From: Anaerolineales bacterium UBA2181
GTDB lineage: Bacteria > Chloroflexota > Anaerolineae > Promineifilales > UBA4811
Assembly: GCA_002328075.1 (NCBI GenBank)
Contig: DCVT01000022.1
Location: forward strand, 9,172-73,171
Direction of reading: 5' to 3'
DNA: 64,000 nucleotides
Shown here: in pieces, positions 5,280 through 56,444 of the stretch
How positions within the stretch are numbered: the stretch's first letter is position 1
How the letters are laid out: every line of letters begins with the position of its first letter
Position numbers and translations under genes: made by a program
The notes under the pieces: model-generated
What the model was told of the DNA's origin: nothing
Databases searched by the model: none
The model's input: the letters and a program-made list of their open reading frames with translations, nothing else

Positions 5280-6617
5280 TTATGGATAGACCCGGTTGAT
5301 CATACGCGGGTACGGAACCGTCTCGCGGATGTGTTTGGTGCCGGTGATCCAGGCGACCGTGCGTTCGACGCCCAAACCAAACCCAGAATGGGGAACACTG
5401 CCGTACTGGCGCAGATCCACGTACCAGGAAAAGGCCTCCGGCGGCAGCTGATGCTCCCGAATCCGCTGTTCCAGGAGGTCGGGGTCGCTGATGCGCTCAC
5501 TTCCACCGGTGATCTCACCGTACCCTTCCGGCGCCAACAGGTCCACACTCTTGCTGACCTCCGGCCGGCCGGGCCAGGGCTCCATGTAAAAAGCCTTGCA
5601 TTGGGTTGGGAATCCGTAAACAAAAACCGGTTTGTCAAACTGCGCGGTGAGCTCGGTCTCGTGCGGCGACCCAAAATCGCTGCCCCACTCTACACTGAGC
5701 AGCTCTTTCAGTTCCGGGTCCTCGGTGCGGGCCTGCACCTCGGCTAACCGGTGCAGCGCGTCATCGTAAGAGATGCGATAGAACGGCGGCGTGACCCGCT
5801 CCAAGGCCCGGATATCCCGCTCGAGCATGGCCAACTCGCTGCGGCGCTCATCCAGGGTCCGCTGGACAATGTAGGAGACAAACTGCTCTTCAATCTCCAT
5901 GAGTTGATCGAGATCGCAAAAGGCGGCCTCGGGCTCTACCATCCAGAACTCGGTCAGGTGACGGCGGGTCTTGGACTTTTCCGCGCGAAACGTGGGACCA
6001 AAGCAGTACACGCGGCCAAAGCTGTAGATATTGGCCTCGTTGTACAACTGACCTGTCTGGGCCAGGTAAGTCGGCTCTCCGAAATAGTCCACCTCAAAGA
6101 GCGTGGTGGTCCCCTCACCGGCTGCCGGGGTAAGGATGGGAGTATCCATGTTGATAAAGCCGTTCTGATCCAGCCATTCCCGGATTGCGCGCACGACGGT
6201 TGCCCGCACGCGCAGGATTGCCCACTGCCGCGAAGACCGTATCCACAAGTGCCGGTTGTCCAGCAGGAATTCGGGACCGTGCTCCTTGGGAGTGATGGGA
6301 TACTCGCCGGCAATCTGCACCAACTGCAGGTCGGTGACTCCCAGTTCATAACCGCCCGGCATTCCAGGCGAGCGATCGTCGGCGCGCACCACCCCAGTGA
6401 CCACCAACGACGACTCCTGGGTCAGACGCCTAGCCGCCTCAAAGACGTCCGCCGGCACGTCCTTTTTGAAAACGACTGCCTGGATGATCCCGGTGCCGTC
6501 GCGGACGCGCAGGAACTGCAATTGGCCCTTTCCGGTTTTCAGCGTCAACCAACCGTGGATGGTCACCGTCTCACCCGGGTAGGACGCGATATCAGCAATA
6601 CGAATCGATCGACTCAT
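5280..6617 (-). CDS. asnS: Asparagine--tRNA ligase
   Basis: 445 aa. N-terminal OB-fold, class II core motifs [21 protein letters not shown] and GSERI, and C-terminal [13 protein letters not shown]...FPR-like end. Length and motifs fit AsnRS better than AspRS. Confidence 0.85.
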
Positions 6618-6689
6618 CTGATCATCTCCCGATCTCGCGGCATACTAGCAGCGCGAATTGTACCTCACAGACTGGCATCGGCAACCAGA

Positions 6690-9600
6690 TCAGCGGGACG
6701 AGGCGCGCGGTGACCTGGTCGGCCAGGATTGGCGCCATTGTGCCGGGACCAACTGAGCCAGCAGAGCTCGCTCGGACGACCCAAACGTGCCCAGGAGCAA
6801 CAACGCGCCGATGTAGACCGCGGTTCCGGCAACCAACCCCAATGACCAGTGGACCTGCCATCCTGCCCAGCAGGAAAAGGCCATGGCGCCGGCGGCCGCT
6901 GCCGGGCGCCAGAGCAATCGCAGCCATGGGACAGCTGCCAGAGCGGGGCGCAGATAATGGTAAAAGGCCAACAGCAGAACCAGCTCAGAAAGGATGGCAA
7001 TGATAGCCGCCGCCGGGTAGCCAAAACGGGGCAGGAAGAGCATGTTGGCGACCACGTTAAAGCCGACGCCCAGCAAAAACGCCCGGGTCAGCATCCGCTG
7101 TTGGCCGAGCGCAATCAGCACATAATTGGTCAGGCTGTTGATCCAGCCGATGGGTATCGACCAGATCAGCAGTTGGAGAGCGTTGGCACCGTGCGGCAGA
7201 TACTCGGCCCCGCCCAGAATCTGAATCAGGAAATGGGCGACGGCCGTGGTCAGGACTGCCAAAGGCAACGCAATGATCACCAGCATCTTGACCGCCAACT
7301 GGTACGTCTCGGCCATCACCTGGCGTGAATCCTTGGCCTGACGGCTCATCAGTGGAAAGATGGCCGCCGTGAACAGCGAAGGCACCAGGTTGAGCGCGTC
7401 CACCCATTTGAAAGCCGTGCTGTACCACCCTACCACCGTGTTGCCGCTTGCCAGCCGGGTTCCTCCCAACCGCTCCAACAGCAAGACGTTGACCTTGAAG
7501 AACAGCGTAGCCAGCAAGTGATTGAGCATCAAGGGCCAACTCTCGCCCACCATCTGCCACTGCAGATGCCAGTCTAGCTGCAGTCGGGGAACGAAAAACA
7601 GGCGGAATGCCAAGGCGGCCAGCAGAACCATGGTCACGAGGTTGACGGTGATGGAAACGCCGGCCAGGCCGACAAAACCACCGCCCACCAGCAGCACCAA
7701 CGTGCCCAAGGTGACCTTGAGGATGGTGGATATACTGGTCAATGCGGCCGGGATTTCGGCCTTTTCGTACGCATAGAACAGACCGGTGAGGCCGGTGCTG
7801 ACGCCGCCCGGGATCATGCCCAACACCAGCAGCCAGATGGCCAGCGTGGTGTCCGATGCCAAGGGTGCAGATCCGCGCGCCAGGACCAGGATATACAGGC
7901 TCACCGGCAGCGCTGCGCCGACGGCGGTGACCAACCTCAACACAGTCGTGTTCATCAGGTATCGGTTGGCAGACGCCCGGTCTCGGGCCACTTCGCGTGT
8001 CAGCAGCGTGTGCAGACCAAAGTTGGCCAGAATCTCAAACCACCCTGCTATATTGATGGCAACGTAATACTTGCCGGAATTCTCCGCACCCAGTATCCGC
8101 AAGGCCAGAGCGGCAAACGCCAGGTCGATCATCCGATTCAGGAGGTTGATGCCCATGGGTGCAAGGCTGTTTTTGGCCAGTCGACGGACGGCCGGGTCGG
8201 TTGCACTCTCCCGGTATATCGCGCGCCAGAGCCAGACAGCGCAAGCAAAAAGGACGACCATGAGCGCCATGAAACTGCCAAACAGCCCCAGCTTGAAGCT
8301 CATGGGTGAATAGCGGAAGCGGACTGACCAGTCGCCCGCGTCCAGCAGAACGCCGCGCAGATTGCCGTCCACCAGCATCACTTCCAGCGCGACCTCGTCA
8401 CACTGCTCGCAACCAAGCGGCCGCCGGTAGGCTTTCCAGCCCGGGAAAAAGCTGTCGCCCAGCACCAGCCACGAACGTTCGAGCACGCTGGCTTGGACTT
8501 TCACCTCCTGGCTGCCGTAATGAGCGATAGTGGCCTCGATCGGCGCGCCGGCGGCGGTCGGTTGGCCGGGTTCGATGCCGGTTGCGGCCGCCGACTCGGG
8601 TTGGACGATCACATAGTACCGCGGGTCGTGTTCGGCCATGGCGGCCAACGGCTCGGGAGATATCACGGTGGCGCTTGCAGGCAAGGAGAAAGCGCGGGGC
8701 GCAACCGCCAGGTTCTCGTAGACGTGCAGTCCCTCTCCCTGCCACACCAACGAAAGCTTGGGCAGTTCCAGCGTCTCGGCGGTGATGATGTACTTGACGT
8801 TGAGCAGGTCCAGGAGTGGGCTGTTGATGCTGGACCACTCCCGAAGCGGTTGGACGCGGTTATACAACAGCTCTAGCTGTGGCTCGATGGCCTCCATATA
8901 GTCGACGTATTGCCGGGAGATGATGGAATCATACCCGCGCACGTCCTGCAGGTCGTAAAGCCAAGGGGTGTTGGCGTGCAGCGGCTGCTCACCGTGCGGG
9001 TCAAAGGTGGTGAGGCGCCACTGGCCCGGCTGCGCCTTGAGAAACTGAATCAGTGCTGGCTCGGACGCGAGCAGGTTGGGGTCGGCCGCCGGGACAAAGC
9101 CCCAGGTGGCTATTGCCAGATCCAGCGCCAAGATCAGCACTGCCAGCAGCTGCCAGCGCCGCGCGCGCCGTGTCGCCAGGTGGAGCACGACCCCGGCCGC
9201 GATCAACGTCAGGGCCGTGATGGCCAGCTGGATGCTCGAATAGCTGAAAAAGGCGGCGGTGCTCGGCACTCCTTCTGGCGCTCTGGCCAGTGAGTGAAAC
9301 ACCCGGTCAATCAGCGGCTCAATCTGGGAGTAAAGCGCCCGGGCCAACACCAGGCAGGCGAGGCCCAGCGCTCCGGCCGCCGTGCTCAGGCGTGCCAACC
9401 ACAAGGTAACCGATCGGCCGGAAGAGTCGGACGCTGCCTGCAACCCCCAACCGGCGAGCAGCGACATACCCAGAGAGAGCGGGAATACCCAACGAAAGGG
9501 CGAGTGCGACTGATTGATGATGGGTATGGCGTGGATGATGGCATAAGCCCCGGTGGGAAAGATAAAGGCCAGCGATATCAGACTCAGCAACGCGGCGAAC

Positions 9601-10811
9601 CAGACTGAGGAGCGGCCGATCTGGCTGCGCCGATCAAAGGAACGGATCACCGCGATGACGGCAAACAGAAGCGTGAGCACTCCAACGTACGCGCCGCCCT
9701 CGACATAGTTCTTCATGCCCCAGTAGATCTGGTTGATTGGCGCGCCCAGGGCGTTGGAGGTTACCGGGCGCACCTGCCAGGAAAAGAGGTCCAAGTAGGT
9801 GTGATGGGTTGGGTTCCCAAAAAAGTTCGGTGCCAGAAACGTGATCAGCCGACGGTAAGGATAGGACCATCCCAACACGTCCGCCAGCGACACCGCCCCT
9901 TCACGAAAGTTGTTGCGAACAACCTCGACAAAGGGGATAAGTTGGACGGAGCCCAGGCCGACACCCGCCGCCACCATGGCGGCGATCCAGAACGCCGGTT
10001 GGACGGCCTCTCGCACTGCCTGCCTCAGTGACTGGGAATGGGGACGAGTTGCCGGCAGGCCGATCAGGCGCCAACCGGCGTACAACCCCACGACAAGCAG
10101 AGTAAAATAGGTGTTCTCCCCGTGGCCGACCAGCAACTGCATGCCAAGACCGGTCGCTCCCAGCGCCGCCCACGGCAGAGACGCCGGCCGGCTAAATGCC
10201 GGCCGGCGCCGGATGACCAGTTCCATCATCGCCAACAGAAACGGAAGCCAGGCGGAACCGGCCAGGATCATGGGGAAGGTGATGCTGACCAGCATATAGG
10301 CGCACAGCTGGTATACCACCGCGGCTGCCAGTGCGGCCGTCCGGCGCATGTTCAACACGCGTGCCAGCAAGAACATAAAGGCGCCGGCCAGGAAAAGTTG
10401 GCTCACCACAAAAACACCGTAAGCGCGAGGCAGAGGCAGCAGCAGGAAAACCAGACCAAAAGGGTAGTACATAGAGTGCTGTCCGGTGGCGGCAAACGGC
10501 GCACCGGCAAACAGGTAGGGGTTCCACAGGGGTATCTCGCGGTTGTGCAGGCCCTGCAGGATGAACCGCTTCCAGGCCAAGTTCTGCAGCAGCAGGTCGC
10601 TCACCAGTTCGTTATGGGGAACAGCAACCCCATAGGCCTCGGCGTAGGATTGCCACGGCTGCCACTGGAACACGTTGTCGGCCGGGATCAGGGTCCGGTT
10701 GCCCAGCGTCACAGGCGCCAGGAGGGCAAGGGGGACGACCAGCAAAACACCCAAGACCAACAGATCGAGGGAAAATCGGCGAAGCAGTCTCATGCCCAGG
10801 GCCCTATCCAA
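6690..10811 (-). CDS. Giant polytopic membrane protein: N-terminal YfhO-family (GT-C-like) glycosyltransferase fused to a C-terminal Wzx/MOP-type polysaccharide flippase domain
   Basis: 1373 aa. The first ~850 aa (NRTLIPADNVFQWQPW...LWNPYLFAGAPFAATGQHSMYYPF) resemble YfhO. The last ~490 aa (LAKNSLAPMGINLLNRMIDLAFAALALRILGAENSGKYYVAINIAGWFEILANFGLHTLLTREVARD..., about 12-14 TM) resemble oligosaccharide flippases. Single uninterrupted ORF. Confidence 0.75.
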   Translation of the reverse strand: MDRALGMRLLRRFSLDLLVLGVLLVVPLALLAPVTLGNRTLIPADNVFQWQPWQSYAEAYGVAVPHNELVSDLLLQNLAWKRFILQGLHNREIPLWNPYLFAGAPFAATGQHSMYYPFGLVFLLLPLPRAYGVFVVSQLFLAGAFMFLLARVLNMRRTAALAAAVVYQLCAYMLVSITFPMILAGSAWLPFLLAMMELVIRRRPAFSRPASLPWAALGATGLGMQLLVGHGENTYFTLLVVGLYAGWRLIGLPATRPHSQSLRQAVREAVQPAFWIAAMVAAGVGLGSVQLIPFVEVVRNNFREGAVSLADVLGWSYPYRRLITFLAPNFFGNPTHHTYLDLFSWQVRPVTSNALGAPINQIYWGMKNYVEGGAYVGVLTLLFAVIAVIRSFDRRSQIGRSSVWFAALLSLISLAFIFPTGAYAIIHAIPIINQSHSPFRWVFPLSLGMSLLAGWGLQAASDSSGRSVTLWLARLSTAAGALGLACLVLARALYSQIEPLIDRVFHSLARAPEGVPSTAAFFSYSSIQLAITALTLIAAGVVLHLATRRARRWQLLAVLILALDLAIATWGFVPAADPNLLASEPALIQFLKAQPGQWRLTTFDPHGEQPLHANTPWLYDLQDVRGYDSIISRQYVDYMEAIEPQLELLYNRVQPLREWSSINSPLLDLLNVKYIITAETLELPKLSLVWQGEGLHVYENLAVAPRAFSLPASATVISPEPLAAMAEHDPRYYVIVQPESAAATGIEPGQPTAAGAPIEATIAHYGSQEVKVQASVLERSWLVLGDSFFPGWKAYRRPLGCEQCDEVALEVMLVDGNLRGVLLDAGDWSVRFRYSPMSFKLGLFGSFMALMVVLFACAVWLWRAIYRESATDPAVRRLAKNSLAPMGINLLNRMIDLAFAALALRILGAENSGKYYVAINIAGWFEILANFGLHTLLTREVARDRASANRYLMNTTVLRLVTAVGAALPVSLYILVLARGSAPLASDTTLAIWLLVLGMIPGGVSTGLTGLFYAYEKAEIPAALTSISTILKVTLGTLVLLVGGGFVGLAGVSITVNLVTMVLLAALAFRLFFVPRLQLDWHLQWQMVGESWPLMLNHLLATLFFKVNVLLLERLGGTRLASGNTVVGWYSTAFKWVDALNLVPSLFTAAIFPLMSRQAKDSRQVMAETYQLAVKMLVIIALPLAVLTTAVAHFLIQILGGAEYLPHGANALQLLIWSIPIGWINSLTNYVLIALGQQRMLTRAFLLGVGFNVVANMLFLPRFGYPAAAIIAILSELVLLLAFYHYLRPALAAVPWLRLLWRPAAAAGAMAFSCWAGWQVHWSLGLVAGTAVYIGALLLLGTFGSSERALLAQLVPAQWRQSWPTRSPRASSR

Positions 10812-10847
10812 TGATCGATCCGTTGACCATTGGTCGCTTTGTGGCGG

Positions 10848-11609
10848 TCAATCGGTAGACGACGGTTCTGGTTTTACCCGGTCGATTGGCGTCAGATGAC
10901 GGTGGCGCCACCAGACCTCCCATACCCGCCATGCCGCCTCCAGCTTGACTCGCATCGTCATCTTGCTACGGCCGCGGTGGCGATCCTCAAAGTGGATGGG
11001 GATTTCCAATATCCGATAGCCCAACCGCTCCGCCACATAGGTCATCTCGACCTGGAAGATGTACCCGTTGGAGCGTATCCGGCTCAGGTCCATGCCCCGC
11101 AAGGTGTCGGCTCGCCAGCACTTGAAACCCGCGGTGGCGTCGCGAGTCTGAATGCGCAGGATGGTGCGGGAATAGACGCTGTTCGCCCACCAACTGAGCA
11201 AATAACGACCCATGCCCCAGTTTTCGTCCAGGCGGCCGCCGGCCACGTAGCGGGAGCCAATCACCACGTCACAGGCCTCCAGCGCCGTCACCATCTGCGG
11301 CAGGTAGAGCGGCGAATGGGAAAAGTCGGCGTCCATCTGGATGATCTGATCCGCTCCCAGCTCGATCGCCCGCCGGAAACCGGCAATGTACGCCGTCCCC
11401 AGCCCCGCCTTGCCGGGCCGGTGTATCACGTGGACGGCGCCCGGCCGGCGAAGAGCCAGGTTCTCGGCTACCTCACCCGTGCCGTCGGGCGAGTTGTCGT
11501 CGACGATGAGGATTTCCAGCCCGGCGACATCTAGCGCCCAAAGCTCGGCTGCGATGAGGGGCAGGTTGTCCGCCTCGTTGTAGGTGGGGATCACGACCAG
11601 GGTTTTCAT
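10848..11609 (-). CDS. Polyprenol-phosphate glycosyltransferase, GT2 family (Ppm1/DPM1-like)
   Basis: [19 protein letters not shown]...[14 protein letters not shown]...[13 protein letters not shown]...IQMDADFSH matches dolichyl/polyprenyl-phosphate mannose synthase-type GT2 enzymes. It ends 36 nt upstream of the YfhO-flippase gene on the same strand. Confidence 0.85.
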
Positions 11610-12099
11610 GGGGTGTCAGGTTGGCCGAGGCCCAGGGCGGTCGTCCGAGTGGCAGACCGTCGGCCGGACTCCTGCCCACCGGGTGCCGACCAGGGTGCAC
11701 CGGCCGATGACATGCCGCATCAAGTCCTCGTCCAACCGCTGATCGTTACCAACGAGCCACGACCCGGCCGGCGCCGATCCGGTGTCCCAGCAGCGACCAA
11801 GGGCGGTGATCCCCGCCGGGCTGAGAGGGACCAACTGGAAACACGTTCACGAACCACGGGGCCGGCTCGTCGGGCGTCTCGGATCCTGTTCAACGGCCAC
11901 CTCCGCTCCTGCATGGACAAGCGCGGCCGCAAATTGGCCCGGCGCAAGAACTGGGTCTCTGGCATGGTGAGCAGTCAGTCGGTAGGTTACCATAGCGGTA
12001 TACGGTTGTCAAGCACTGCCCGACGGCCGTCCGACGGGCGTGCCGATCGCCATTGCTCGTCGGGCGCGCCGGCGGTGAGGCAAAGGTCGGACGTGGCGC

Positions 12100-12139
12100 A
12101 AAAAAAGGTGCCCGCCACCCTATTGGGTGGCGGGCACCT
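12100..12139 (-). terminator. Rho-independent terminator of the secreted-protein gene
   Basis: On the minus strand: AGGTGCCCGCCACCC-AATA-GGGTGGCGGGCACCT, a perfect 15-bp stem, followed by TTTTTTT. It lies 58 nt past the stop codon of 12197..13060. Confidence 0.85.
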
Positions 12140-12196: not shown

Positions 12197-13060
12197 TTAC
12201 GGGAGGATCACCGGGCAGGCTACCTCGACTCGCACGTCCCCGTGCACTCCGTAAAAGTTGGCTGCGGGCACAGTCACGCTCGCAGAGCTGCCCGTGATAT
12301 CGTACTTGTAAGCGAACCCGCCCGGGCTGGGGTTGCCCGAGGGCGCCTCATCGTATCCCTGGATTTTCAGGCTTTCCTCAACGGGGTTGAACGACCAGCC
12401 AGGGTTGAGCTCGATGGATATGGTGACCGTGTCGTCTCCATTATCGGTAAATGTCACCCAGCCCGCTTCGTAGGTCTGACCGGCGTAAAAGATCACTTGT
12501 TCGGTGGTGTAGGGGGTGAAAGTGGCCCAGTTGCCCGAGTCTATGTATCGCGTGCCATCCGCCCAAGCGGTCTCGTAATCGTAGCAGACCTCCTCCGGAT
12601 CAGGGTTCCAGCAGAAAGTGACGTGGCTGATACCATAGGGGTTAAGGTTTTTTGGGTTGATTGGTGCATACAGTTCGGTATCGCTGTAGGCCGGTGGAGC
12701 ATAGAAAAAGACGTTGGCCACCGGGCCACCCTTGACGATGACTGCACCGATGGAATTCGTCGCGATCCAATCAAAGGTGATATCGTTGTCATTGCTGATG
12801 GTGATGGAATTCACGTGCTCCAGCACTCCCCACTCATCATAGAACTTGGCGACGTAGATACCATCCATGTAGAAGCCCCCATCGCCCCAAGCATCGATCT
12901 TGTAGGCGTACATGTAGTCGCCTACTTGCGAACACTCGAATGCGGCGTTGCCCGACTGCCAGGGGTTGACCAACACCGGCTCCACCGAAGCGGCCAGCGC
13001 TACACTGCTGAGCCCCATGGCCAACGCCAGGGCCAGGGTCAAAATCATCCGTGTCTTCAT
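12197..13060 (-). CDS. Secreted protein of unknown function (signal peptide, no recognised domain)
   Basis: Sec signal MKTRMILTLALALAMGLSSVALA. Mature part is rich in W/Y/D/N/G with 4 Cys, including ETAWADG and NWATFTPY segments. Coherent codon usage, own terminator. Looks less GC-rich than its neighbours. Confidence 0.7.
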   Translation of the reverse strand: MKTRMILTLALALAMGLSSVALAASVEPVLVNPWQSGNAAFECSQVGDYMYAYKIDAWGDGGFYMDGIYVAKFYDEWGVLEHVNSITISNDNDITFDWIATNSIGAVIVKGGPVANVFFYAPPAYSDTELYAPINPKNLNPYGISHVTFCWNPDPEEVCYDYETAWADGTRYIDSGNWATFTPYTTEQVIFYAGQTYEAGWVTFTDNGDDTVTISIELNPGWSFNPVEESLKIQGYDEAPSGNPSPGGFAYKYDITGSSASVTVPAANFYGVHGDVRVEVACPVILP

Positions 13061-18906: not shown

Positions 18907-20850
18907 ATGGGCAACGTCCGTCGCTGGTACACCTATGGGATCTGTGCGATTGCTTTGCAGGCGCTCGCGTGGGCCTTGATTAACCTGCTGCGCAACCTAT
19001 TGCTCTCACCCCTCCGGCCTCAACCGGAGGCGCTCGCCTTTCAGATCGCGGTGATTGTGGTGGGCGGCGCGCTTTACCTGGGCCACTGGCTTTGGGCCCG
19101 GCGGTTGACCCGCGCGAGCGATGAAGAGCGCCATGCGACGCTGCGCGGGCTGTATCTCTATGGCATGATGGCTGGGTTCCTCGGTCCGATTCTTCCCAAC
19201 CTCTACGACCTCCTCCGCACGCTGATGGGTACCAAACGGGTTTGGTCCGGTTATCCGCGTGTGGAATTGACTCCCCGCGAGTGGTCGGTCTATCACCTGA
19301 TGGCGGTGCTGGTGTTGGGCCTCTGGTGGCTGTACCACTGGATGGAGGTGCGGCAGGAGGGCAAGAGGGAGTCGGATGGCTGGGCAACGGTGCGGCGGTC
19401 GTACATCCTGGGGTTCTCCGCCGCCGGGCTGAAAATCACCACTGTGGCTATGATCTCGCTGATTCAGTGGCTGCTGCTGCTGCCGGGCGCCATTTGGAGC
19501 AGAGGGGCAGCCAGCCAATCGGTGTTGACGCTCGGTGCCCAGCTACTCATTGGGGTGCCGCTGTGGACCGTCTTTTGGTCCCGGGCGCAGGCGTTGTTCG
19601 ATGCCGGGAACGCGTCCGAACGCGATTCTGCGCTGCGCAAGGCATACCTCTATCTCGCTGCCTTGATCGGTTCGATGGGATCCATCTATGCCGCTGCTGC
19701 GTTGGCAGCCAGCCTGATGCGGAGGTTGCTGGGCTGGAGCGCCGTAGCCCAAGGCAGTGAGGGCGACTATCGGCAGGCGCTATCGATCATTGCAGGCCTG
19801 GGGGTGCTGTGGTCTTACCACGCCTATGTGCTTCGCGGGGATGCGGCCAAGGAAGAGACAACCGCGCAAAAAGCGACCGTCCGACACATTTATATCTATC
19901 TGGTGGCAGGCGCCGGTCTGCTTGCCCTCGGGATTGGGCTGGGCGGTGAGGTCACTGTGCTGGTGAACACCCTGGCCAGTGGCGGGTTTGGGAACAGCCA
20001 ACAGGCGGCCTTTGCCTGGGCCACGGCCGCCATCATCGCCGGTCTGCCTGTCCATGTGGTGCAGAGGCGGCGGGCACAGTTGGAGGCCAGGGGGACGGGT
20101 CCGGACAGCACCCATGCCCTGCGCTCCGTTCCCAGGCGAATCTACCTTTACCTGTTTCTGTTTGCCGCCGCCCTGGTCGACCTGGGGGCGTTGGTCTTTA
20201 TTGTGTACAAGATTCTCAGCGCGTTGTTGGGAGGCGAGCCCCTACGGATGGCCGAAATCGCCCAATACATCGGATACGCCGCCATTGGGGCGGCCGTGTG
20301 GGTGAGCCATCTGGTGGTGCTGCGTTCCGACCGGCAACTGCTGGCAGCCACGGAAGAGGCCAAGGCCTTGCGTCTGGTGATGCTGGACGCGGAAGGCTCC
20401 TCCTTGGGACCCGCGATTGTCCGGGCGCTCGCAGAAAGCGTCGGGGGTGTGGACGTGACGCTGGCGCAAGTGGGACAGGCGGGAACGGCAGACGATTCGG
20501 CCGAGGCCGCGCGAGACGAGCTGCTCGGCGCGGCCGATCTGGTTCAGGTCCCATGGCTCCTCCTGCAGGCCGGAAGCGGGGTCCCGGCATCGTTGCCGGG
20601 GGCCGTGGCGCGGAGTCCGGTGCGCAAGCTGTTGCTACCCATCTGGAGCGAAGGTTGGGAGTGGGTCGGCGTCGACCGCTGGGAGCCAGACGAGTGGGCG
20701 AGAGAGGCGGTCAACGCGGTCGGTCGGGCGGTGGAAGGCCGGCCGATCAAACCCCGGCGGCCGTTAGGCGCCGCGGCCATCGCCTGGATCGTGCTGGGTG
20801 GTCTGATGCTGCTATCCGCCTTGGGGGCGGCGATCGCCAACATACTCTAG
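18907..20850 (+). CDS. Polytopic membrane protein built from six tandem two-helix modules (DUF5671-like repeats) plus a C-terminal soluble segment and a terminal TM
   Basis: SD aggagg upstream. Six occurrences of an R-x-x-Y-(L/I/T)-Y motif each open a hydrophobic hairpin: RRWYTYG, LRGLYLYG, RRSYILG, LRKAYLYL, VRHIYIYL, PRRIYLYL. Confidence 0.75.
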   Translation: MGNVRRWYTYGICAIALQALAWALINLLRNLLLSPLRPQPEALAFQIAVIVVGGALYLGHWLWARRLTRASDEERHATLRGLYLYGMMAGFLGPILPNLYDLLRTLMGTKRVWSGYPRVELTPREWSVYHLMAVLVLGLWWLYHWMEVRQEGKRESDGWATVRRSYILGFSAAGLKITTVAMISLIQWLLLLPGAIWSRGAASQSVLTLGAQLLIGVPLWTVFWSRAQALFDAGNASERDSALRKAYLYLAALIGSMGSIYAAAALAASLMRRLLGWSAVAQGSEGDYRQALSIIAGLGVLWSYHAYVLRGDAAKEETTAQKATVRHIYIYLVAGAGLLALGIGLGGEVTVLVNTLASGGFGNSQQAAFAWATAAIIAGLPVHVVQRRRAQLEARGTGPDSTHALRSVPRRIYLYLFLFAAALVDLGALVFIVYKILSALLGGEPLRMAEIAQYIGYAAIGAAVWVSHLVVLRSDRQLLAATEEAKALRLVMLDAEGSSLGPAIVRALAESVGGVDVTLAQVGQAGTADDSAEAARDELLGAADLVQVPWLLLQAGSGVPASLPGAVARSPVRKLLLPIWSEGWEWVGVDRWEPDEWAREAVNAVGRAVEGRPIKPRRPLGAAAIAWIVLGGLMLLSALGAAIANIL

Positions 20851-33665: not shown

Positions 33666-33748
33666 GCCGAAGTGGCGGAACTGGCAGACGCGCACGACTC
33701 AAACTCGTGTGAGCTTAGCTCGTGTGGGTTCGATTCCCACCTTCGGCA
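33666..33748 (+). tRNA. tRNA-Leu (anticodon CAA), type II with long variable arm
   Basis: Acceptor GCCGAAG/CTTCGGC plus discriminator A. D-arm GCG..CGC. Anticodon stem CACGA/TCGTG with loop CTCAAAC. Variable arm GAGC-TTA-GCTC. T-arm GTGGG-TTCGATT-CCCAC. No encoded CCA. Confidence 0.9.
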
Positions 33749-50754: not shown

Positions 50755-52536
50755 TTGCTTCGCAGTATCCGCCAACGAATAGCGGTTCCCTATGCCGCTC
50801 TGATCCTGGTGTCTACCGTGGTACTGGCATTGTTCGTCTCCACCTATGTCAGGGCCGAGTATCTGACCGACCTGGAGTCGCATCTGGTGGCCGATGCCCG
50901 CATGGTCGGTCAGGCGGTGCTGCCCGCGCTTCGCGCGGACAGCGCCGGTGCTCAGGTTCTTCAGACTCTGGCGGGGCAGTTGGGAGATTCGCTGGGAGCG
51001 CGGGTTACATTGATCGGAGTGGATGGGTGGGTGCTGGGCGATTCATACGAGGACCCGCTTGGCATGGATAACCACCTGACGCGGCCGGAGGTGCAAGCCG
51101 CGCTGGCCGACGGTGTTGGAGTATCGACTCGTCGCAGCCCCACCTTGGGTTACGACCTCATGTACGCGGCGGTACCGGTGATTCTTGAGGGCGAGACCGT
51201 GGCCATTTCTCGGGTCTCCTTGCCTCTCACCCGGGTGCAGGAGCGGGTGGATCGACTGCGGAACACAGTTCTTCTGACCGCCGCGGCGGTGCTGCTGCTG
51301 GCTGGCCCCCTGGTGGTGCTCACGGCTGAAGGGATCGCCCGGCCGGTGCGCACGCTGACCCAACTGGCCGAGCGCGCATCGCAGGGCGAGAGGTCCGGCC
51401 GCATTCGCACCGCTAGCCACGACGAGACCGGTCGGCTGGCAGACGCCTTCAACCGCATGATTGAAGAAACGGATCGACAGATGGATGCCTTGGCCAGCCA
51501 GAGGAACGCCCTGACCGCGGTGCTGACCCACATGGCGGACGGAGTCATCATCACCGGAGCGGACGAGCGGGTCAGGTTGATCAACCCAGCCGCTGCACGG
51601 CTGCTGGATACCGCTGAAGCCTCGGCGGTGGGCGAGCGGTTCGTCACGGTCGCGCGCGATCATCAGGTGGTCGAAATCTGGCGCCGGTGCCTGGCGAGCA
51701 ATACGGAGCAAACCGCCGCCGTCGAGATGGTCGGCGCGCGCCCTTTTCTGCAGGTGGTGGTCACCCCATTGGACGGCGATAGCTGTCTGGTGCTGCTTCA
51801 GGACCTGACCCGAATCCGCCGGTTGGAAACGGTGCGGCGAGACTTCATCAGCAACATCTCGCACGAGTTGCGTACTCCCCTGGCCTCATTGCGCGCGCTA
51901 GTAGAAACGTTGCAGGACGGAGCGTTGGCTGATCCCCCCGCCGCCACGCAATTCCTGGGCCTGATGCAGACCGAGGTGGATGCACTGGCGCAGTTGGTGG
52001 AAGAGCTGCTCGAACTCTCGCGCATCGAATCCGGCCGGGCGCCGCTGCGGCTATGCCCTACTCCGGTGGCGGACGTGATCCATCCGCCTGTCGCGCGTCT
52101 TCAACCGCAGGCCAAGCGGGCCCACCTGCGTCTATTCGTCGAATTGCCGGAGGGCCTGCCGGATGTGTTGGCCGACGTCGAACGCGTGCGCCAGGTGGTG
52201 ACCAACCTGGTTCACAACGCCATCAAGTTCACCCCCCTCAAGGGCACAATCCGGGTCTGGGCAGAGCCGGCTGGAGATATGGTGCGCATCGCGGTGCAGG
52301 ACAATGGGATTGGCATTGCCACCGATGACCTTGCCCGTGTCTTTGAGCGGTTTTACAAGGTGGATCACGCTCGCAGCGGCAAAGGAACCGGGCTGGGTCT
52401 GGCCATTGCCCGTCACCTGGCCCGGGCTCACGGAGGTGATATCCGAGTGGAAAGCGTGGAGGGAAGCGGCAGCACCTTTAGTTTCACCCTGCCGTTCGCG
52501 CACGATCGTCCAGTTGACTCGGTACAGCAAGGCTAG
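50755..52536 (+). CDS. Sensor histidine kinase (extracytoplasmic loop, HAMP, PAS, HisKA, HATPase), PhoR-like
   Basis: TTG start 3 nt after the regulator stop. Two TM segments flank a ~150-aa loop. H-box FISNISHELRTPLASL. N, G1 and G2 boxes (NLVHNAIKFT, DNGIGI, GTGLGLAI). Confidence 0.85.
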   Translation: MLRSIRQRIAVPYAALILVSTVVLALFVSTYVRAEYLTDLESHLVADARMVGQAVLPALRADSAGAQVLQTLAGQLGDSLGARVTLIGVDGWVLGDSYEDPLGMDNHLTRPEVQAALADGVGVSTRRSPTLGYDLMYAAVPVILEGETVAISRVSLPLTRVQERVDRLRNTVLLTAAAVLLLAGPLVVLTAEGIARPVRTLTQLAERASQGERSGRIRTASHDETGRLADAFNRMIEETDRQMDALASQRNALTAVLTHMADGVIITGADERVRLINPAAARLLDTAEASAVGERFVTVARDHQVVEIWRRCLASNTEQTAAVEMVGARPFLQVVVTPLDGDSCLVLLQDLTRIRRLETVRRDFISNISHELRTPLASLRALVETLQDGALADPPAATQFLGLMQTEVDALAQLVEELLELSRIESGRAPLRLCPTPVADVIHPPVARLQPQAKRAHLRLFVELPEGLPDVLADVERVRQVVTNLVHNAIKFTPLKGTIRVWAEPAGDMVRIAVQDNGIGIATDDLARVFERFYKVDHARSGKGTGLGLAIARHLARAHGGDIRVESVEGSGSTFSFTLPFAHDRPVDSVQQG

Positions 52537-55500
52537 TAGCCCAACTCACGCCCCAGCACCATCAGCGCCATGGCCAACGTTCGGCCGGCGCCGGCCAACT
52601 TGTCCTCTGAAATCGCCTCCACTGAGTCGGCCGGCTGTTGGGAGAACCCCTCCCACCCTTGCCAGCGGACGGACACCATGGGCGCCTCCTGACCAGACCG
52701 TGTAAAGGTGCGACCCTGGTCGTAGATCATGCTGATGTCGATGGCCTCGCGGGCCCTTGCCGTGCTCACGCCCATCTGCTGCGCGGACTTTTCCAGCAGT
52801 TCGGCCAGACGCAGACTGCTGCCGGCCGTGACCTCCAGCCCATCACCCGTACCCGCGCCCACACCCCGCACGTGGATCACCGCCTCCAGTTTGAAATTGG
52901 AGAACGCCGGCCGCGCCTGCAGGAACTTGGAAACGTCGGTGTAGGAGACCAGTTCGCCACCCTCGCGGCCCTGTCCGGCGTAGGCGATGAACATGATGCT
53001 GCGGTTGGCTTGATAGCCCGACTCTTGCAGCACGCGGATGGCCTCCAAAATCACCGCCACGCCGCTGGCGTTGTCATTGGCTGCCGACAGACTCTTGCCC
53101 GGAACGGGCGGTGGGCTGTCGTACGGCGCCATCACCACCACCAGGTAACGGGCGAGGCAGTCCACACAGTTGTCAAAACTGACTGACCCCGGTATGTAAC
53201 CGATGACGTTCTGTACTGGAAAGCGCTCCTCGATCTGCGCCTGGACTTCCACGTCGACGGTGGGCACCAGGTCCAACTGCCAGACCTCCTCGGCCGCCAG
53301 GCGCTCGCGCTGGTCCCGCACCTGGCTCAGCGTGTACCCGGATCCGTCCAGCAGTCGCTCGGCCGCAGAATTCGATAACCAGAGAGAGGGATAGTCCTGG
53401 CCAATAGGTTCACTGTTGAACCAGTGGAAGAAGGCGGCCGCGCTGGCCCCTGAGAGACTGGGCTGAATCTCAAACTGGTGCTCGTCTGGTGCAACCACCA
53501 GCAACCCCTGATCCACCCTCCTAGCCACCTCCAGCGCATCCTGGGCGTCCAAGGTCAGGATCACCTGGCCGTCGAAATCGACTTTGGCCAGATCCACAAA
53601 TCGGGTCTGGATGATGCCTGTGGCCTGTACCAGAGGAACTCCCAAGGCGATGAGTTTCACTGGCCCGCTGCCCACGCCCAACGATACCCAACTCCCCGAA
53701 TAGGCGGCAATGTCCTTGAGAAAGCTCACCGGCGGGCCGTCGTCATGGATCACCAGTTCCGGCTCTGCTACCAGGTACCCAAAGCTGCGTGTTCGGTCCT
53801 GGAACCAGGTACCCCGCTGGCCGCCGGATTGGAGGCCCAGGTCCTGGAACTCCTCGGCGATGTATTTAGCCGCCGCCGCCACCCCAACGGTTCCCAAGGC
53901 TCGGCCCTCCATTTCCGGAGCGGTAAGCGCCAAGACGTGCTGCATGGCGCGGTCGGCTTCGAACTGCTGGGCGTATGCCCTGTAGTAGGGAGTGGAGCCG
54001 CTGTTGTCCATGAGCCAGCTCAGAACCAGAGCCGCCACCACGGTCGCCGCCACGGTGTACCAACTGACCAGCCGGTTGATGACCAGGTTACCCTCTTCCA
54101 CCAGGCGTCGTAAGCCTTCTCCAAAGAGGTTAAAGCTGAGGATCGAGACGAAAAAGGCCAACATGGGGTATAGCGCCGTCCATGGGTAACTGCGGGCCTG
54201 ATAGCGGATGTTGGCCAGCAGGGCGCCCCACTCAGGAACGTCCGAATAGAGCGCAACCCCCGCAGGCAGGTGGAATAGGGTGCCCCCGCCGATAAAGATG
54301 CTGATGAAACCCAGTTCTCCCAAGGTCATCAGCACAGCGCCCATCTCCAACGCGATGATGGAGATGAGGGCAGAAAAGAGGTTGGGAAGGATGTGCCGGC
54401 CCAAGATGCGGGCAGTGCGGGCCCCAGTTGCCACTGCACTCTCGATGTATGGCTGCGGCCGCAATTTGATCACCTCACCCCGCACGAATTGCATGATTTC
54501 GCCCCATCCCACGAAACAGAGGGCCAGGACAAAGGGCACCATCCCCTGCCGGATATCCAAAGCCAGGATCAGAATCATCGCCAGCAGCAAGGTCGGGAAG
54601 GCAGAAATGATCTCGGCCGCGCCCAGAATCCAGCGGTCCAGCTGGCCGCCGTGAGTCCATCCTGCCAGCGCTCCCAGCACCACGCCAACTACGGTTCGGG
54701 TGGCTACGGCCAGGGCTGCCAGGATCAGCGTCTGCTGGGCGCCAGCCAGCAACAGGCTCATCATGCACCGGCCCAGCATATCCGTGCCCCATGGGTAGGC
54801 TTCGCCCGGCTCGAACGGCGGCAGTGCGAGTTTGCCGTCGATAAAGACCAAACCCTCCGTTCGGTAAGGGTTGTTGGGCGTAATGGAGGGGCCCACAAAA
54901 ACCAAGAGGGCCAATCCCAGTACCACCAGGCCGCCCACCATGAAAGGCAGATTGGTCAGCGCCGACTTCCAGGCCGAACGCGTGCGGGTCTCCCAAACAG
55001 TTTGATTTGGCCGGGGAAAGGACCGGTCTGCTAGCTCTTCTGGGCGCAACTCGGCCGCCTGTCTGGCTTGCCGTTTTCGACGCCAGCGAACTAGCAGGTT
55101 ATCATCCGCCCAGTCCCTCAATTCGTCCCTGGCGTCACGCAGGGTCGCCACCAACCCCCGGCGCTCCCGCAGGGCGACGTGGGCCGGTCCCTCTGAAAGG
55201 CGCGGATCCAGGATGCGGTAGCAGAGTTCCAGTATGAGGTTCACCAGGATGAATAACGAACCCAGGCAAAGCACGAGCGCGACGGTCAGATTATGGTCGT
55301 GCCGGGCGATGCTCTTGAGCAGCGTGAAACCCGCTCCCGGCCATCCGAAATAGAGCTCGACGACGGGCAGACTGCTCAGGGAGAATCGCAGCGAGACGCC
55401 GATGGTTGTGAGAATCGGGATGGCTGCGTTGCGCAGGACGTGTACCGCCAACACCCGATGACGCCTCAGTCCCTTGCTGCGTGCGGTCCGCACATAGTCC

Positions 55501-56444
55501 TGGTCCAGGACCTGCCGCACGGCGATGAAGGTCATACGGGTTATCTGCGCGACCGGCCGCGCCGATAACACCAATGCTGGCAGCAGCAGGTGGTTGTCCC
55601 AACCAAAGCCGCCGACTGGCAGCAGGGCGCGCCCCGCGTGGCGTGTCAGCGTGATGACAGCCCACTGGAGCAGATAAGCAGCGAAGAAGCTGGGGACGGA
55701 CATGCCAATGATCGTGGCGATGAGGACATAGAGCGACCGCTGAGCTTTGGAACGGGCCGCAAGCACTCCCAGGCTCACCCCCACCAGCGCAGCCAGCAGG
55801 AGTGAGACCCCCAGCAGTCCCAAGCTGCGTGGCAGCCGTTCCCGGATCACCCCCAACACCGGCACTGCGAGCAGGGTCTCTCCGCCAGCGGTCGAAAGCC
55901 CCAAGTCTCCCTGCACCAGGTTTGTTAGGTACGCACCGGTCCGAGAAAGGGCCTGACTGGCGGCTGGTCCAAAGGGTGTGCCCCCGGCCATATCCAGGCC
56001 GAGGTAGGTCAGCAGGATGATGGTCAGCAATATGAGCGCACCGAAAGCCAGTCGTCGGCCCGCCAGCAGCACCAAACCCCAGCCGGGTCGGCCACGTCGG
56101 TCGCGCCCGCGCGCGGCGGTTTCAACGCTGGCAAAACCTGCCCAGTCCGGCCGAATCGGTTCTGCGACCGGTGGGGCTAGAGGGACGGATACCAGGGGGC
56201 GTGGCGCCAGCCGTTTTCCCAGCGCTTGCACCCCACGCCGCGCTGTCTGGTTCTGCGGCTCAATGCGCTGCACCTGCTCAAGGCAGAATAGCTTGTCGGC
56301 ATCCGCCTCAACCACGCGGGCCAACCAGAGCCACGTCGGGACATCAGTCGGGTGCTCCCGGAGGTGTTGGGCCAATAGCGCTATCGCGTCTGCCCGCCGC
56401 CCGGCCTGCGCTTGCCGGATGCCTTGCTGCAAAAGATCAACCAT
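52533..56444 (-). CDS. 1303-aa fusion: N-terminal TPR-like segment + DppB/OppB-type ABC permease + DppC/OppC-type ABC permease + C-terminal extracytoplasmic M28-peptidase-like domain
   Basis: Single ORF. TPR-like DAIALLAQHLREHPTDVPTWLWLARVV. Permease 1 with YVRTARSKGLRRHRVLAVHVLRNAAIPILTTIG (EAA-loop region). Permease 2 with YPWGTDMLGRCMMS and YIESAVATGARTARILGRHILPNLF. Then a TM, followed by NVIGYIPGS, VVVMAPYDS, AANDNASGVAVILEAIRVL and MFIAYAGQGREGGE, which are collinear with M28 motifs. Confidence 0.75.
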   Translation of the reverse strand: MVDLLQQGIRQAQAGRRADAIALLAQHLREHPTDVPTWLWLARVVEADADKLFCLEQVQRIEPQNQTARRGVQALGKRLAPRPLVSVPLAPPVAEPIRPDWAGFASVETAARGRDRRGRPGWGLVLLAGRRLAFGALILLTIILLTYLGLDMAGGTPFGPAASQALSRTGAYLTNLVQGDLGLSTAGGETLLAVPVLGVIRERLPRSLGLLGVSLLLAALVGVSLGVLAARSKAQRSLYVLIATIIGMSVPSFFAAYLLQWAVITLTRHAGRALLPVGGFGWDNHLLLPALVLSARPVAQITRMTFIAVRQVLDQDYVRTARSKGLRRHRVLAVHVLRNAAIPILTTIGVSLRFSLSSLPVVELYFGWPGAGFTLLKSIARHDHNLTVALVLCLGSLFILVNLILELCYRILDPRLSEGPAHVALRERRGLVATLRDARDELRDWADDNLLVRWRRKRQARQAAELRPEELADRSFPRPNQTVWETRTRSAWKSALTNLPFMVGGLVVLGLALLVFVGPSITPNNPYRTEGLVFIDGKLALPPFEPGEAYPWGTDMLGRCMMSLLLAGAQQTLILAALAVATRTVVGVVLGALAGWTHGGQLDRWILGAAEIISAFPTLLLAMILILALDIRQGMVPFVLALCFVGWGEIMQFVRGEVIKLRPQPYIESAVATGARTARILGRHILPNLFSALISIIALEMGAVLMTLGELGFISIFIGGGTLFHLPAGVALYSDVPEWGALLANIRYQARSYPWTALYPMLAFFVSILSFNLFGEGLRRLVEEGNLVINRLVSWYTVAATVVAALVLSWLMDNSGSTPYYRAYAQQFEADRAMQHVLALTAPEMEGRALGTVGVAAAAKYIAEEFQDLGLQSGGQRGTWFQDRTRSFGYLVAEPELVIHDDGPPVSFLKDIAAYSGSWVSLGVGSGPVKLIALGVPLVQATGIIQTRFVDLAKVDFDGQVILTLDAQDALEVARRVDQGLLVVAPDEHQFEIQPSLSGASAAAFFHWFNSEPIGQDYPSLWLSNSAAERLLDGSGYTLSQVRDQRERLAAEEVWQLDLVPTVDVEVQAQIEERFPVQNVIGYIPGSVSFDNCVDCLARYLVVVMAPYDSPPPVPGKSLSAANDNASGVAVILEAIRVLQESGYQANRSIMFIAYAGQGREGGELVSYTDVSKFLQARPAFSNFKLEAVIHVRGVGAGTGDGLEVTAGSSLRLAELLEKSAQQMGVSTARAREAIDISMIYDQGRTFTRSGQEAPMVSVRWQGWEGFSQQPADSVEAISEDKLAGAGRTLAMALMVLGRELGY

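Follow-up and report, generated by a model that had tools for sequence, protein, structure and literature searches.

Does a pair of adjacent genes in a Chloroflexota contig encode a complete system for extracytoplasmic glycosylation, with the flippase built into the glycosyltransferase? The window, a 64,000-nucleotide stretch of contig DCVT01000022.1 from Anaerolineales bacterium UBA2181, carries on its minus strand a GT2 gene followed by a single long gene. The first-pass annotation described the pair as a two-gene module in which a YfhO-like transferase is fused to a Wzx/MOP-type flippase. All three predicted functions (synthase, flippase and GT-C) are found in the window as two adjacent, co-directional genes.

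The long gene occupies one uninterrupted frame on the minus strand, as originally described. ORF calling gives a TTG-start version at 6690..10811 (-), which is open throughout, with no stop over 1373 aa. Homologue alignments begin at the ATG at 10793, which is M7 of this ORF, and a database copy (P0001) contains 1367 aa and is 100% identical to the fusion protein. By alignment and sequence, the protein probably starts at this ATG, giving 1367 aa rather than 1373 (6690..10793 (-), with the stop codon at 6690-6692). Residues are numbered from M7 below. The GT2 gene (10848..11609 (-), 253 aa) sits exactly 36 nt upstream of the TTG at 10811, which is the gap first reported. Since the homologue alignments and P0001 start at the ATG, the true intergenic gap is probably 54 nt. 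Two further signals come from a consensus scan only. An intrinsic-terminator-like hairpin (12106..12139 (-), a 15-bp stem and then a T run) putatively ends an upstream secreted-protein gene and may delimit the GT2-fusion transcription unit on its upstream side. A promoter-like site lies between the fusion gene and asnS (6684..6657). The asparaginyl-tRNA synthetase gene asnS (5280..6617 (-); Pfam tRNA-synt_2 and tRNA_anti-codon) does follow on the same strand, but its position is incidental. Only about 4 of 80 relatives have asnS downstream of the fusion, and with this lack of conserved linkage it is placed outside the module.

The N-terminal half of the fusion protein, approximately 860 aa, matches a single Pfam family at E<=1. 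This family is YfhO (PF09586), as proposed for the N-terminal ~850 aa. Scanned alone, the half scores 37.4 bits (E 1.4e-9); in the whole-protein scan, the match covers aa 364-711 with 31.7 bits (Pfam cut-off 28.5). The score is modestly over the cut-off and profile coverage is partial (positions 266-595 of 835). A precomputed PF09586 match is present in 68 of the 120 homologues listed. The AF2 model of this half has a pLDDT of 93.4 and a pTM of 0.93. Foldseek with this model returns AftD as the best match (E 3e-8), followed by ArnT, STT3, AglB, AftA and Pmt, and all top matches are GT-C enzymes with polyprenyl-phosphate-linked donors. A PDB sequence search with the N-half profile returned no meaningful matches, and the link to solved structures is by fold alone. 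By profile and modelled fold, the half is assigned as a GT-C glycosyltransferase of the YfhO family.

Two parts can be distinguished within this half. The GT-C transmembrane module (9099..10793 (-), aa 1-565) has 13 TM helices in the AF2 model and is matched by Foldseek. It is followed by a predicted extracytoplasmic, beta-rich C-terminal domain (8304..9098 (-), aa 566-830; AF2 and Pfam), which is strand-rich in AF2 secondary structure with pLDDT >90. The YfhO match reaches into this domain, to aa ~705 in the N-half scan, and the domain and the TM module are equally conserved. A PAD39N motif is invariant in loop 1 of the TM module; D39 (codon 10677-10679) is invariant in 78 sequences. The model helices and the K/R-rich loops (positive-inside rule) suggest that D39 and loop 1 lie on the extracytoplasmic face. 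Other invariant residues, H224/E226, R297, E365, R434 and D558, are also predicted on the outer side.

The C-terminal half (6693..8177 (-), aa 873-1367, ~495 aa) is clearly assigned by sequence and modelled fold to the MOP superfamily as a PST/Wzx-like flippase domain, and translocation itself is predicted. In the whole-protein Pfam scan, Polysacc_synt covers aa 878-1157 (E 1.3e-23), with additional matches to Polysacc_synt_3 and MatE. Scanned alone, the half scores 87.3 bits against Polysacc_synt (PF01943; cut-off 28.2), 50.4 bits against Polysacc_synt_3 (PF13440) and approximately 31 bits each against MurJ and MatE. The profile check thus agrees with the flippase domain of ~490 aa that had been read from the sequence. 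Foldseek with a two-domain AF2 model returns MATE transporters and the lipid III flippase WzxE (9g95, 9g9m, 9g9o, 9g9p) with probability 1.00; the target-normalised TM values for these fold matches are 0.48-0.56, from a model in which the MOP domain is represented by its first ~330 aa. A PDB sequence search with the MOP half returned no meaningful relatives. MurJ and SpoVB orthology were considered for this domain. The MurJ match (PF03023, 31 bits) falls in two stretches and the SpoVB score (TIGR02900) is 27.9 against a cut-off of 372, so the domain is not an orthologue of either.

The two halves are equally conserved. Mean column conservation is 0.64 in one half and 0.66 in the other, and the MOP domain has its own set of invariant charged residues (R899, R933, R953, E1010, E1013 and R1151). 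These observations bear on the reading in which one half is non-catalytic or non-transporting and serves as a scaffold, chaperone or regulatory domain. Such a remnant would fit the partial YfhO match, with nothing specific in its favour. The equal conservation and the many invariant charged residues in both the GT-C module and the MOP domain argue against it, and we consider it very unlikely.

The junction between the two halves falls in TM helix 14 and a short basic cytoplasmic linker (8178..8303 (-), aa 831-872; AF2 and alignment), in agreement with the first estimate of ~8150-8300. The helix at 831-859 is present in both AF2 models (N-half and two-domain). The segment from W856 to N875 is 20 aa long in 76 of 78 homologues and has a mean K+R count of 4.3. 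The linker is conserved in frame, and a check of the junction for a hidden stop or frameshift found neither. At least 120 full-length homologues are known (1324-1468 aa, 46-65% identity), and the identical fusion protein is present on 9 contigs from public assemblies. Orthologues of a thermophilic, Thermoflexus-type kind are among the relatives (L033 and L048). In 80 Chloroflexota species-representative genomes, the N-half and the MOP domain share one ORF at essentially every complete locus. At the only locus that looks split (L029), a MAG assembly contains two frameshifts that compensate each other. This locus shows that frameshifts occur in some MAG assemblies, and nothing else favours a merger of two adjacent genes through an overlooked stop or a frameshift. 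The nine identical contigs, the single frame across the 80 genomes and the conserved junction rule out an assembly or annotation artefact, to which we give a negligible probability. The fusion is confirmed as genuine and as conserved across the genomes of hundreds of relatives. No published description of a YfhO-like/MOP fusion was found in open-access papers and preprints, an absence that is not proof.

Current annotation overlooks the 860-aa glycosyltransferase half. Source records call the full-length protein "oligosaccharide flippase family protein" or "O-antigen/teichoic acid export membrane protein".

The arrangement of the two halves was assessed by structure prediction. The two-domain AF2 model, made with a 1200-aa construct that stops ~170 aa short of the end of the MOP domain, has a pTM of 0.91; by our estimate, domains with no defined placement relative to each other would give ~0.7. 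From this pTM, the two membrane modules are predicted to be packed rigidly. The two halves also co-diverge (r = 0.87). Together, the fixed linker length, the co-divergence and the high two-domain pTM suggest a fixed physical interface, not a loose tether. Relatives of the N-half, fused or unfused, number ~23,000. Unfused relatives of 828-963 aa end just past the 14th TM helix. The fusion may have arisen from a complete 14-TM YfhO-like protein that already ended in the cytoplasm, to which a MOP domain, itself starting in the cytoplasm, would have been appended via a fixed basic linker of ~12-20 residues. No separate MOP gene was found beside the unfused relatives at the five loci examined, and thus no split-gene counterpart backs the link between the two functions.

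The GT2 protein matches Pfam Glycos_transf_2 (PF00535) with E 6e-26. Its best PDB relative is the dolichol-P-mannose synthase of P. furiosus (5mlz, E 6.9e-31, aa 1-230), and the DAD and GSRYVxGG motifs align with this structure. The score is 111 bits against the solved Dol-P-Man synthase and ~40 bits against ArnC. Of the 374 aa in the PfDPMS chain, only the catalytic domain (residues 23-244) is aligned, and the 253-aa GT2 has no C-terminal hydrophobic segment or TM anchor. Homologues are named "polyprenol monophosphomannose synthase" or "dolichol-phosphate mannosyltransferase" in the sources, and the protein reaches no NCBIfam equivalog cut-off. On these grounds, GT2 is classified by sequence as a soluble cytoplasmic polyprenyl-phosphate hexose synthase of the DPM1/Ppm1 type, unlike the GtrB/CsbB/ArnC form. 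The Ppm1-like label of the first-pass annotation is therefore retained. The sugar is probably mannose, from GDP-mannose, with names transferred by homology.

The gene neighbourhood varies among the 80 relatives. GT2 is directly upstream of the fusion in approximately 25 of them (about a third), and a second GT-C (PMT_2) is directly downstream in approximately 30. The two-gene module thus holds in the window but is only one of several layouts. Other companions of the fusion in relatives are V4R, RR-type and GH1 genes; a search of the window for these and for PMT_2 returned only an unrelated receiver-domain match. Among five unfused relatives examined, two are adjoined by a GT2 of ~255-272 aa.

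These neighbours bear on what the MOP domain carries. The domain might flip an oligosaccharide on a polyprenyl-PP (or Dol-P-like) carrier, or else a lipid-linked acceptor, with the GT-C acting as an oligosaccharyltransferase, ligase, polymerase or decorator and GT2 supplying a separate donor. In favour of this reading, the C-half scores best against PST/Wzx families in Pfam, its fold matches WzxE, a flippase for PP-linked lipid III, and the oligosaccharyltransferase subunits STT3 and AglB are among the GT-C matches. One unfused relative (P0137) has a Wzy_C/TPR protein and several GT4/GT2 genes as neighbours. However, the recurring neighbour families of the relatives include no initiating phosphoglycosyltransferase and no set of oligosaccharide-building cytoplasmic GTs, and AftD and ArnT rank over the oligosaccharyltransferases in Foldseek. 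The recurrent partners are a DPM1-like GT2 and a PMT_2 GT-C, which indicate a monophosphate-sugar route. We regard the oligosaccharide reading as rather improbable.

The same neighbours suggest a different role for the fusion. The MOP domain might be a general polyprenyl-P-sugar flippase that feeds several GT-Cs, including the downstream PMT_2, with fusion serving co-expression, stability or localisation and not direct hand-off. The frequent PMT_2 neighbour is consistent with this. GT2 is 65-78% identical among relatives and its gene is often unlinked to the fusion, as expected of a housekeeping donor pool. The invariant linker length, tight co-divergence and high two-domain pTM, which suggest a fixed interface, weigh against it. 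A shared supply of this kind is unlikely, although it deserves some weight, and it is compatible with the three-component interpretation given below except on channelling.

We favour, with somewhat better than even confidence, the interpretation that the two-gene locus is a compacted three-component system for extracytoplasmic glycosylation. The gene structure, the two folds, the conservation of the fusion and its topology all agree with such a system. At the inner membrane face, the soluble DPM1/Ppm1-type GT2 would charge polyprenyl phosphate with a hexose, most likely mannose with GDP-mannose as its source. The C-terminal MOP/Wzx-like domain would move the polyprenyl-P-sugar to the outer leaflet. 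There, the YfhO-like GT-C domain at the N-terminus would transfer the sugar to an envelope acceptor, which could be a glycopolymer, a glycolipid or a protein; the active site of this domain, with invariant D39 of extracytoplasmic loop 1 as a part, is predicted to face outward. The GT-C fold and the donors of its Foldseek matches, the MOP fold, the DPM-like GT2, the conserved fusion and the gene context argue for this interpretation. Several points count against it. The YfhO match is partial and of modest score, GT2 is non-adjacent in about two thirds of the relatives, and homology of a GT2 does not reveal its sugar specificity. The classical cargo of PST/Wzx-family flippases is a polyprenyl-PP-oligosaccharide and not a monophosphate-monosaccharide, and the monophosphate-sugar role of GacK, ORF14 and AglR, the last probably a member of the Wzx/MOP family, is itself a proposal.

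A stronger version of this interpretation is held only tentatively. Here the MOP domain would be a dedicated polyprenyl-phosphate-mannose flippase that hands its donor straight into the attached GT-C active site, and the "Rosetta stone" fusion would unite synthesis, flipping and transfer in one membrane machine. We know of no PPM flippase identified in mycobacteria or corynebacteria and of no identified eukaryotic Dol-P-mannose carrier. If the dedicated-flippase reading is true, the MOP half offers a search handle for polyprenyl-P-mannose and dolichol-P-mannose flippases in actinobacteria and eukaryotes. GtrA/GtcA, GacK, the Citrobacter MATE protein and AglR were assigned as flippases from genetics and context (PMC7389260, 10.1101/180810, PMC11127046, PMC3871713), and no polyprenyl-monophosphate sugar flippase is known to have been demonstrated by biochemistry. 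A conserved MOP and GT-C fusion beside a DPM1/Ppm1-type synthase points strongly, through guilt by association, to the family that does the flipping. As one stable polypeptide whose model has high confidence, the fusion would suit cryo-EM or reconstitution of the hand-off from flippase to transferase. It also flags a core, unstudied pathway of envelope glycosylation in Anaerolineae-type Chloroflexota (Ardenticatenales, Promineifilaceae and Thermoflexales).

Among known systems, the same logic is found in the glycosylation of LTA, and to our knowledge teichoic acids have not been described in Chloroflexota. CsbB, the GT2 of the B. subtilis system, is membrane-anchored. In CsbB-GtcA-YfhO (B. subtilis) and GtlA-GtcA-GtlB (Listeria), a GT2 forms C55-P-sugar, which a flippase carries across for transfer to LTA by a YfhO-family GT-C outside the membrane (PMC7389260). 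The flippase of these systems is a separate small GtrA-family protein, whereas here it is a fused MOP domain, and GttA, the GT2 of a related Listeria system, is membrane-anchored, whereas here the GT2 is of the soluble DPM1/Ppm1 type (PMC7389260). The likeness between YfhO itself and the N-half is distant (37 bits, partial profile coverage).

The use of a different flippase superfamily, as first claimed, holds relative to GtrA/GtcA but is not new, with GacK, Citrobacter ORF14 and probably AglR as precedents. The Wzx-type GacK of Streptococcus pyogenes is a proposed polyprenyl-P-sugar flippase; in the GacI/GacJ/GacK/GacL system, this Wzx-family (MOP) protein is proposed to flip GlcNAc-P-Und, a polyprenyl-monophosphate sugar, for the GT-C GacL (bioRxiv 10.1101/180810). 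The Gac components are all separate and the GT2 depends on GacJ, a small protein of the membrane; the system adds GlcNAc to polyrhamnose (bioRxiv 10.1101/180810). The pentofuranose system of Citrobacter youngae O1/O2 likewise modifies a finished glycan outside the membrane with a polyprenyl-phosphate sugar synthase, a flippase of the MATE family (MOP superfamily) and a GT-C, and its ORF14 is the proposed polyprenyl-P-sugar flippase (PMC11127046). These are three separate proteins, the synthase is of another type and uses PRPP to make the donor, and the GT-C, which is not YfhO-like, founds family GT136 (PMC11127046).

In Haloferax volcanii N-glycosylation, AglD/AglR/AglS carry out an equivalent set of three steps with mannose, the likely sugar here as well (PMC3871713, PMC4335974). 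AglD is the Dol-P-mannose synthase, AglS is a Dol-P-Man-dependent transferase outside the membrane and AglR, a proposed polyprenyl-P-sugar flippase (PMC3871713), is proposed as the Dol-P-mannose flippase or its helper (PMC3871713, PMC4335974). This system is archaeal, its proteins are separate and its acceptor is a protein-bound N-glycan (PMC3871713, PMC4335974). Mycobacterial and corynebacterial Ppm1 is the same soluble synthase type as the GT2 here, and the PPM-dependent GT-Cs PimE, MptA/B and Pmt use polyprenyl-P-mannose outside the membrane, as proposed here (PMC3485146, PMC12041525). AftD, the best structural match of the N-half, belongs to the same envelope machinery. In M. tuberculosis, the known fusion partner of the synthase is an Lnt-like membrane domain, whereas here the flippase is joined to the GT-C. 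The three-component logic is already known, and what is new here is the covalent architecture of a MOP domain and a YfhO-like GT-C.

The GT2 gene (10848..11609, 253 aa), the fusion ORF (6690..10811, 1373 aa) and asnS (5280..6617) are co-directional on the minus strand. The first-pass annotation placed the GT2 36 nt upstream of the fusion gene. This is correct for the 1373-aa ORF, but in the alignment of homologues the conserved protein begins at M7 of the ORF (ATG at 10793), which gives 1367 aa and a gap of 54 nt; residues are numbered from this methionine unless stated otherwise. P0001, the database copy of the protein, is 100% identical and is also 1367 aa long. A strong terminator-like hairpin with a 15-bp stem (12139..12106) ends the gene upstream of the GT2, and the GT2 therefore opens the transcription unit. 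The product of that upstream gene (12197..13060, minus strand) is a secreted protein of 287 aa that has a clear signal peptide but matches no Pfam family, and could be a candidate glycosylation acceptor.

The fusion is real and old. A genome scan with one genome per GTDB species yielded at least 550 confirmed stretches, of which one locus may contribute as many as two, and the counts of context and reading frame rest on its best 80 loci. As first read from the window, the N-half and the MOP domain share one ORF, and they do so in all complete loci among these 80 with a single exception, L029. This locus, on a MAG contig, carries two compensating frameshifts in the MOP-coding part (10800-11620) and still encodes every residue; it was rejected as a natural split gene and is likely an assembly indel error or a pseudogene. 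Nine contigs from public assemblies carry the identical fusion protein, and composition and GC3 are even along the whole gene. The basic junction segment (W856..N875) is 20 residues long in 76 of 78 sequences, with no unrecognised split. Neither half is better conserved than the other, and identities in the two, compared pair by pair, are correlated (r = 0.87, 2926 pairs). An artefactual fusion is thus exceedingly improbable.

Full-length homologues number at least 120, with lengths of 1324-1468 aa and identities of 46-65%. Where their sources name them, the name is solely "oligosaccharide flippase family protein" or "O-antigen/teichoic acid export membrane protein". In the record titles of 79 of the 80 best loci, the lineage given belongs to Chloroflexota (Ardenticatenales, Promineifilaceae, Thermoflexales, Anaerolineae). 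The fusion is widespread in one phylum and under-annotated. Locus L021 (DATLAB010000023.1), titled "Patescibacteria group bacterium", has a Chloroflexota-type GH1-V4R-GT2-fusion-PMT_2 arrangement syntenic with locus L025, and its contig is probably mis-binned.

In Pfam searches, the whole ORF matches Polysacc_synt (aa 878-1157 of the ORF, E 1.3e-23), Polysacc_synt_3 and MatE, and weakly YfhO (31.7 bits, cut-off 28.5). Each half alone matches the family proposed for it. The C-half scores as a MOP flippase (Polysacc_synt, 87.3 bits; MurJ and MatE weaker), and the N-half matches YfhO (37.4 bits, E 1.4e-9, profile positions 266-595 of 835) and no other Pfam family at E<=1. In NCBIfam, the whole ORF has a sub-threshold SpoVB match and nothing else. 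The GT2 matches PF00535. Its closest solved relative is the Pyrococcus furiosus dolichol-phosphate-mannose synthase 5mlz (E 6.9e-31, aa 1-230), with which its DAD and GSRYVxGG motifs align; ArnC-type enzymes reach only ~40 bits. PfDPMS, GtrB and ArnC have a TM region at the C-terminus that the GT2 does not. Homologues 65-78% identical to it are named "polyprenol monophosphomannose synthase" or "dolichol-phosphate mannosyltransferase".

The AF2 model of the N-half (77 homologues in the alignment) has a pLDDT of 93.4 and a pTM of 0.93. At E <= 0.001, Foldseek matches in the PDB are exclusively GT-C glycosyltransferases: AftD (E 3e-8), ArnT, STT3 of yeast and human OST, AglB and AftA. Pmt4 and Pmt1/2 follow at E 0.01-0.06. 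A PDB sequence search with the N-half returns no solved protein that is a sequence relative. The modelled helices and K/R-rich loops suggest 13 TM helices, a beta-rich extracytoplasmic domain (aa ~566-830) and TM14 (831-859), which would bring the chain back to the cytoplasm. The PAD39N motif of the first loop, H224/E226, R297, E365, R434 and D558, among others, are invariant in 78/78 aligned sequences and are predicted to sit in outward-facing loops. With this probable topology, the residue pattern is as expected of an active GT-C enzyme, and it is very unlikely that one half is inactive.

In the two-domain model (aa 1-1200; the GT-C module and about the first 330 aa of the MOP domain), pLDDT is 90.5 and pTM is 0.91. 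By our own estimate (d0 about 11 Å at 1200 residues), pTM would have a ceiling near 0.7 if the inter-domain orientation were undefined. The value therefore points to a fixed arrangement, predicted with confidence. With this model as query, Foldseek retrieves GT-C enzymes as well as MATE/WzxE transporters. One loop, PLWNPYLFAGxPFLAxGQ (fusion aa 94-104, about nt 10482..10514), is highly conserved, with P88, W90, G97, P99, F100 and G104 invariant. Its pLDDT is about 89 in the N-half-only model versus <50 in the two-domain model, and it may be a mobile part of the active site or of the interface.

An exhaustive N-half search finds 22,960 representative proteins at E<=1e-3, of which 1,267 reach E<=1e-30. 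The best 150 relatives include 40 complete fusions, down to ~33% identity, and about 15 genuine unfused proteins (828-963 aa, about 28-42% identity). The latter end just past TM14, a few basic residues beyond it. The fusion therefore arose when a complete YfhO-like protein gained the MOP domain at its C-terminus, on the cytoplasmic side. Because MOP flippases start in the cytoplasm, no topological adjustment was necessary. At five loci of unfused relatives, no MOP gene adjoins; a ~255-272-aa GT2 is a neighbour at two, and one has a PMT_2 gene, a Wzy_C/TPR gene and several GTs.

The recurrent order in relatives is a divergent GH1 gene, then a V4R protein, a response regulator (GGDEF match weak, below cut-off), in some loci a GT2, the fusion and a PMT_2-type GT-C. 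This neighbourhood extends from roughly 3 kb before the fusion to 2.5 kb after it. It is found in L005-L008, L014 and about 45 other loci, and may mark a regulated locus for envelope glycans that has two GT-C enzymes. The two-gene layout and the adjoining asnS, both described from the window, hold there; in relatives, the GT2 is directly upstream at only ~25/80 of the best loci and asnS downstream at about 4/80.

The overall first reading, a fused flippase and transferase beside a GT2, is confirmed as an observation and supported, with corrections, as an interpretation. On the inner face of the membrane, the GT2 would make a polyprenyl-P-hexose, with mannose as the probable sugar. The MOP domain would flip this lipid, and the fused GT-C domain would pass the hexose to an outside acceptor; we consider this sequence of steps somewhat probable as a whole. 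PMT_2 lies directly downstream of the fusion at ~30/80 of the best loci. A flippase that supplies several GT-C enzymes, with the fusion serving co-localisation and not channelling, is unlikely. The recurring neighbour families include no initiating phosphoglycosyltransferase and no oligosaccharide-building GT set, and it is unlikely that the MOP domain flips a PP-linked oligosaccharide or lipid acceptor with the GT-C domain as OTase or polymerase.

No V4R, RR-type, GH1 or PMT_2 neighbour is found in the window. A second unusually long membrane fusion is present (52533..56444, minus strand), a 1303-aa ORF in which two ABC-permease domains (BPD_transp_1) and an OppC_N segment are joined to an M28 peptidase domain at the C-terminus. 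A 647-aa protein (18907..20850, plus strand) contains three DUF5671 stretches. One tRNA gene (33666..33748, plus strand) is the sole Rfam match at gathering threshold within the 64 kb.

The architecture, a flippase-GT-C fusion, appears to be new; the three-component system itself is already known. A full-text search of open-access papers and preprints found no description of a covalent flippase-GT-C fusion. The value of the fusion lies mainly in a Rosetta-stone argument on the flipping of polyprenyl-P-sugars and their hand-over to GT-C enzymes, and in a structural target for the same question. In M. tuberculosis, Ppm1 is fused with an Lnt-like domain, that is, with partners other than a flippase and a GT-C. 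GacI-GacJ, a known fusion in these pathways, also joins other partners (10.1101/180810). The GT2 and the fusion follow the same logic as the GtrA/B/C, CsbB-GtcA-YfhO and GtlA-GtcA-GtlB systems (PMC7389260). The use of a different flippase superfamily, noted in the first-pass annotation, stands in that the C-half is MOP-type, but it is not novel. The Wzx-family GacK is the proposed flippase of GlcNAc-P-Und (10.1101/180810), and for the Citrobacter pentofuranose system the flippase role is proposed for a MATE-family protein (PMC11127046). Haloferax AglR has been put forward as the flippase, or a helper of the flippase, for Dol-P-mannose between AglD and AglS (PMC3871713).
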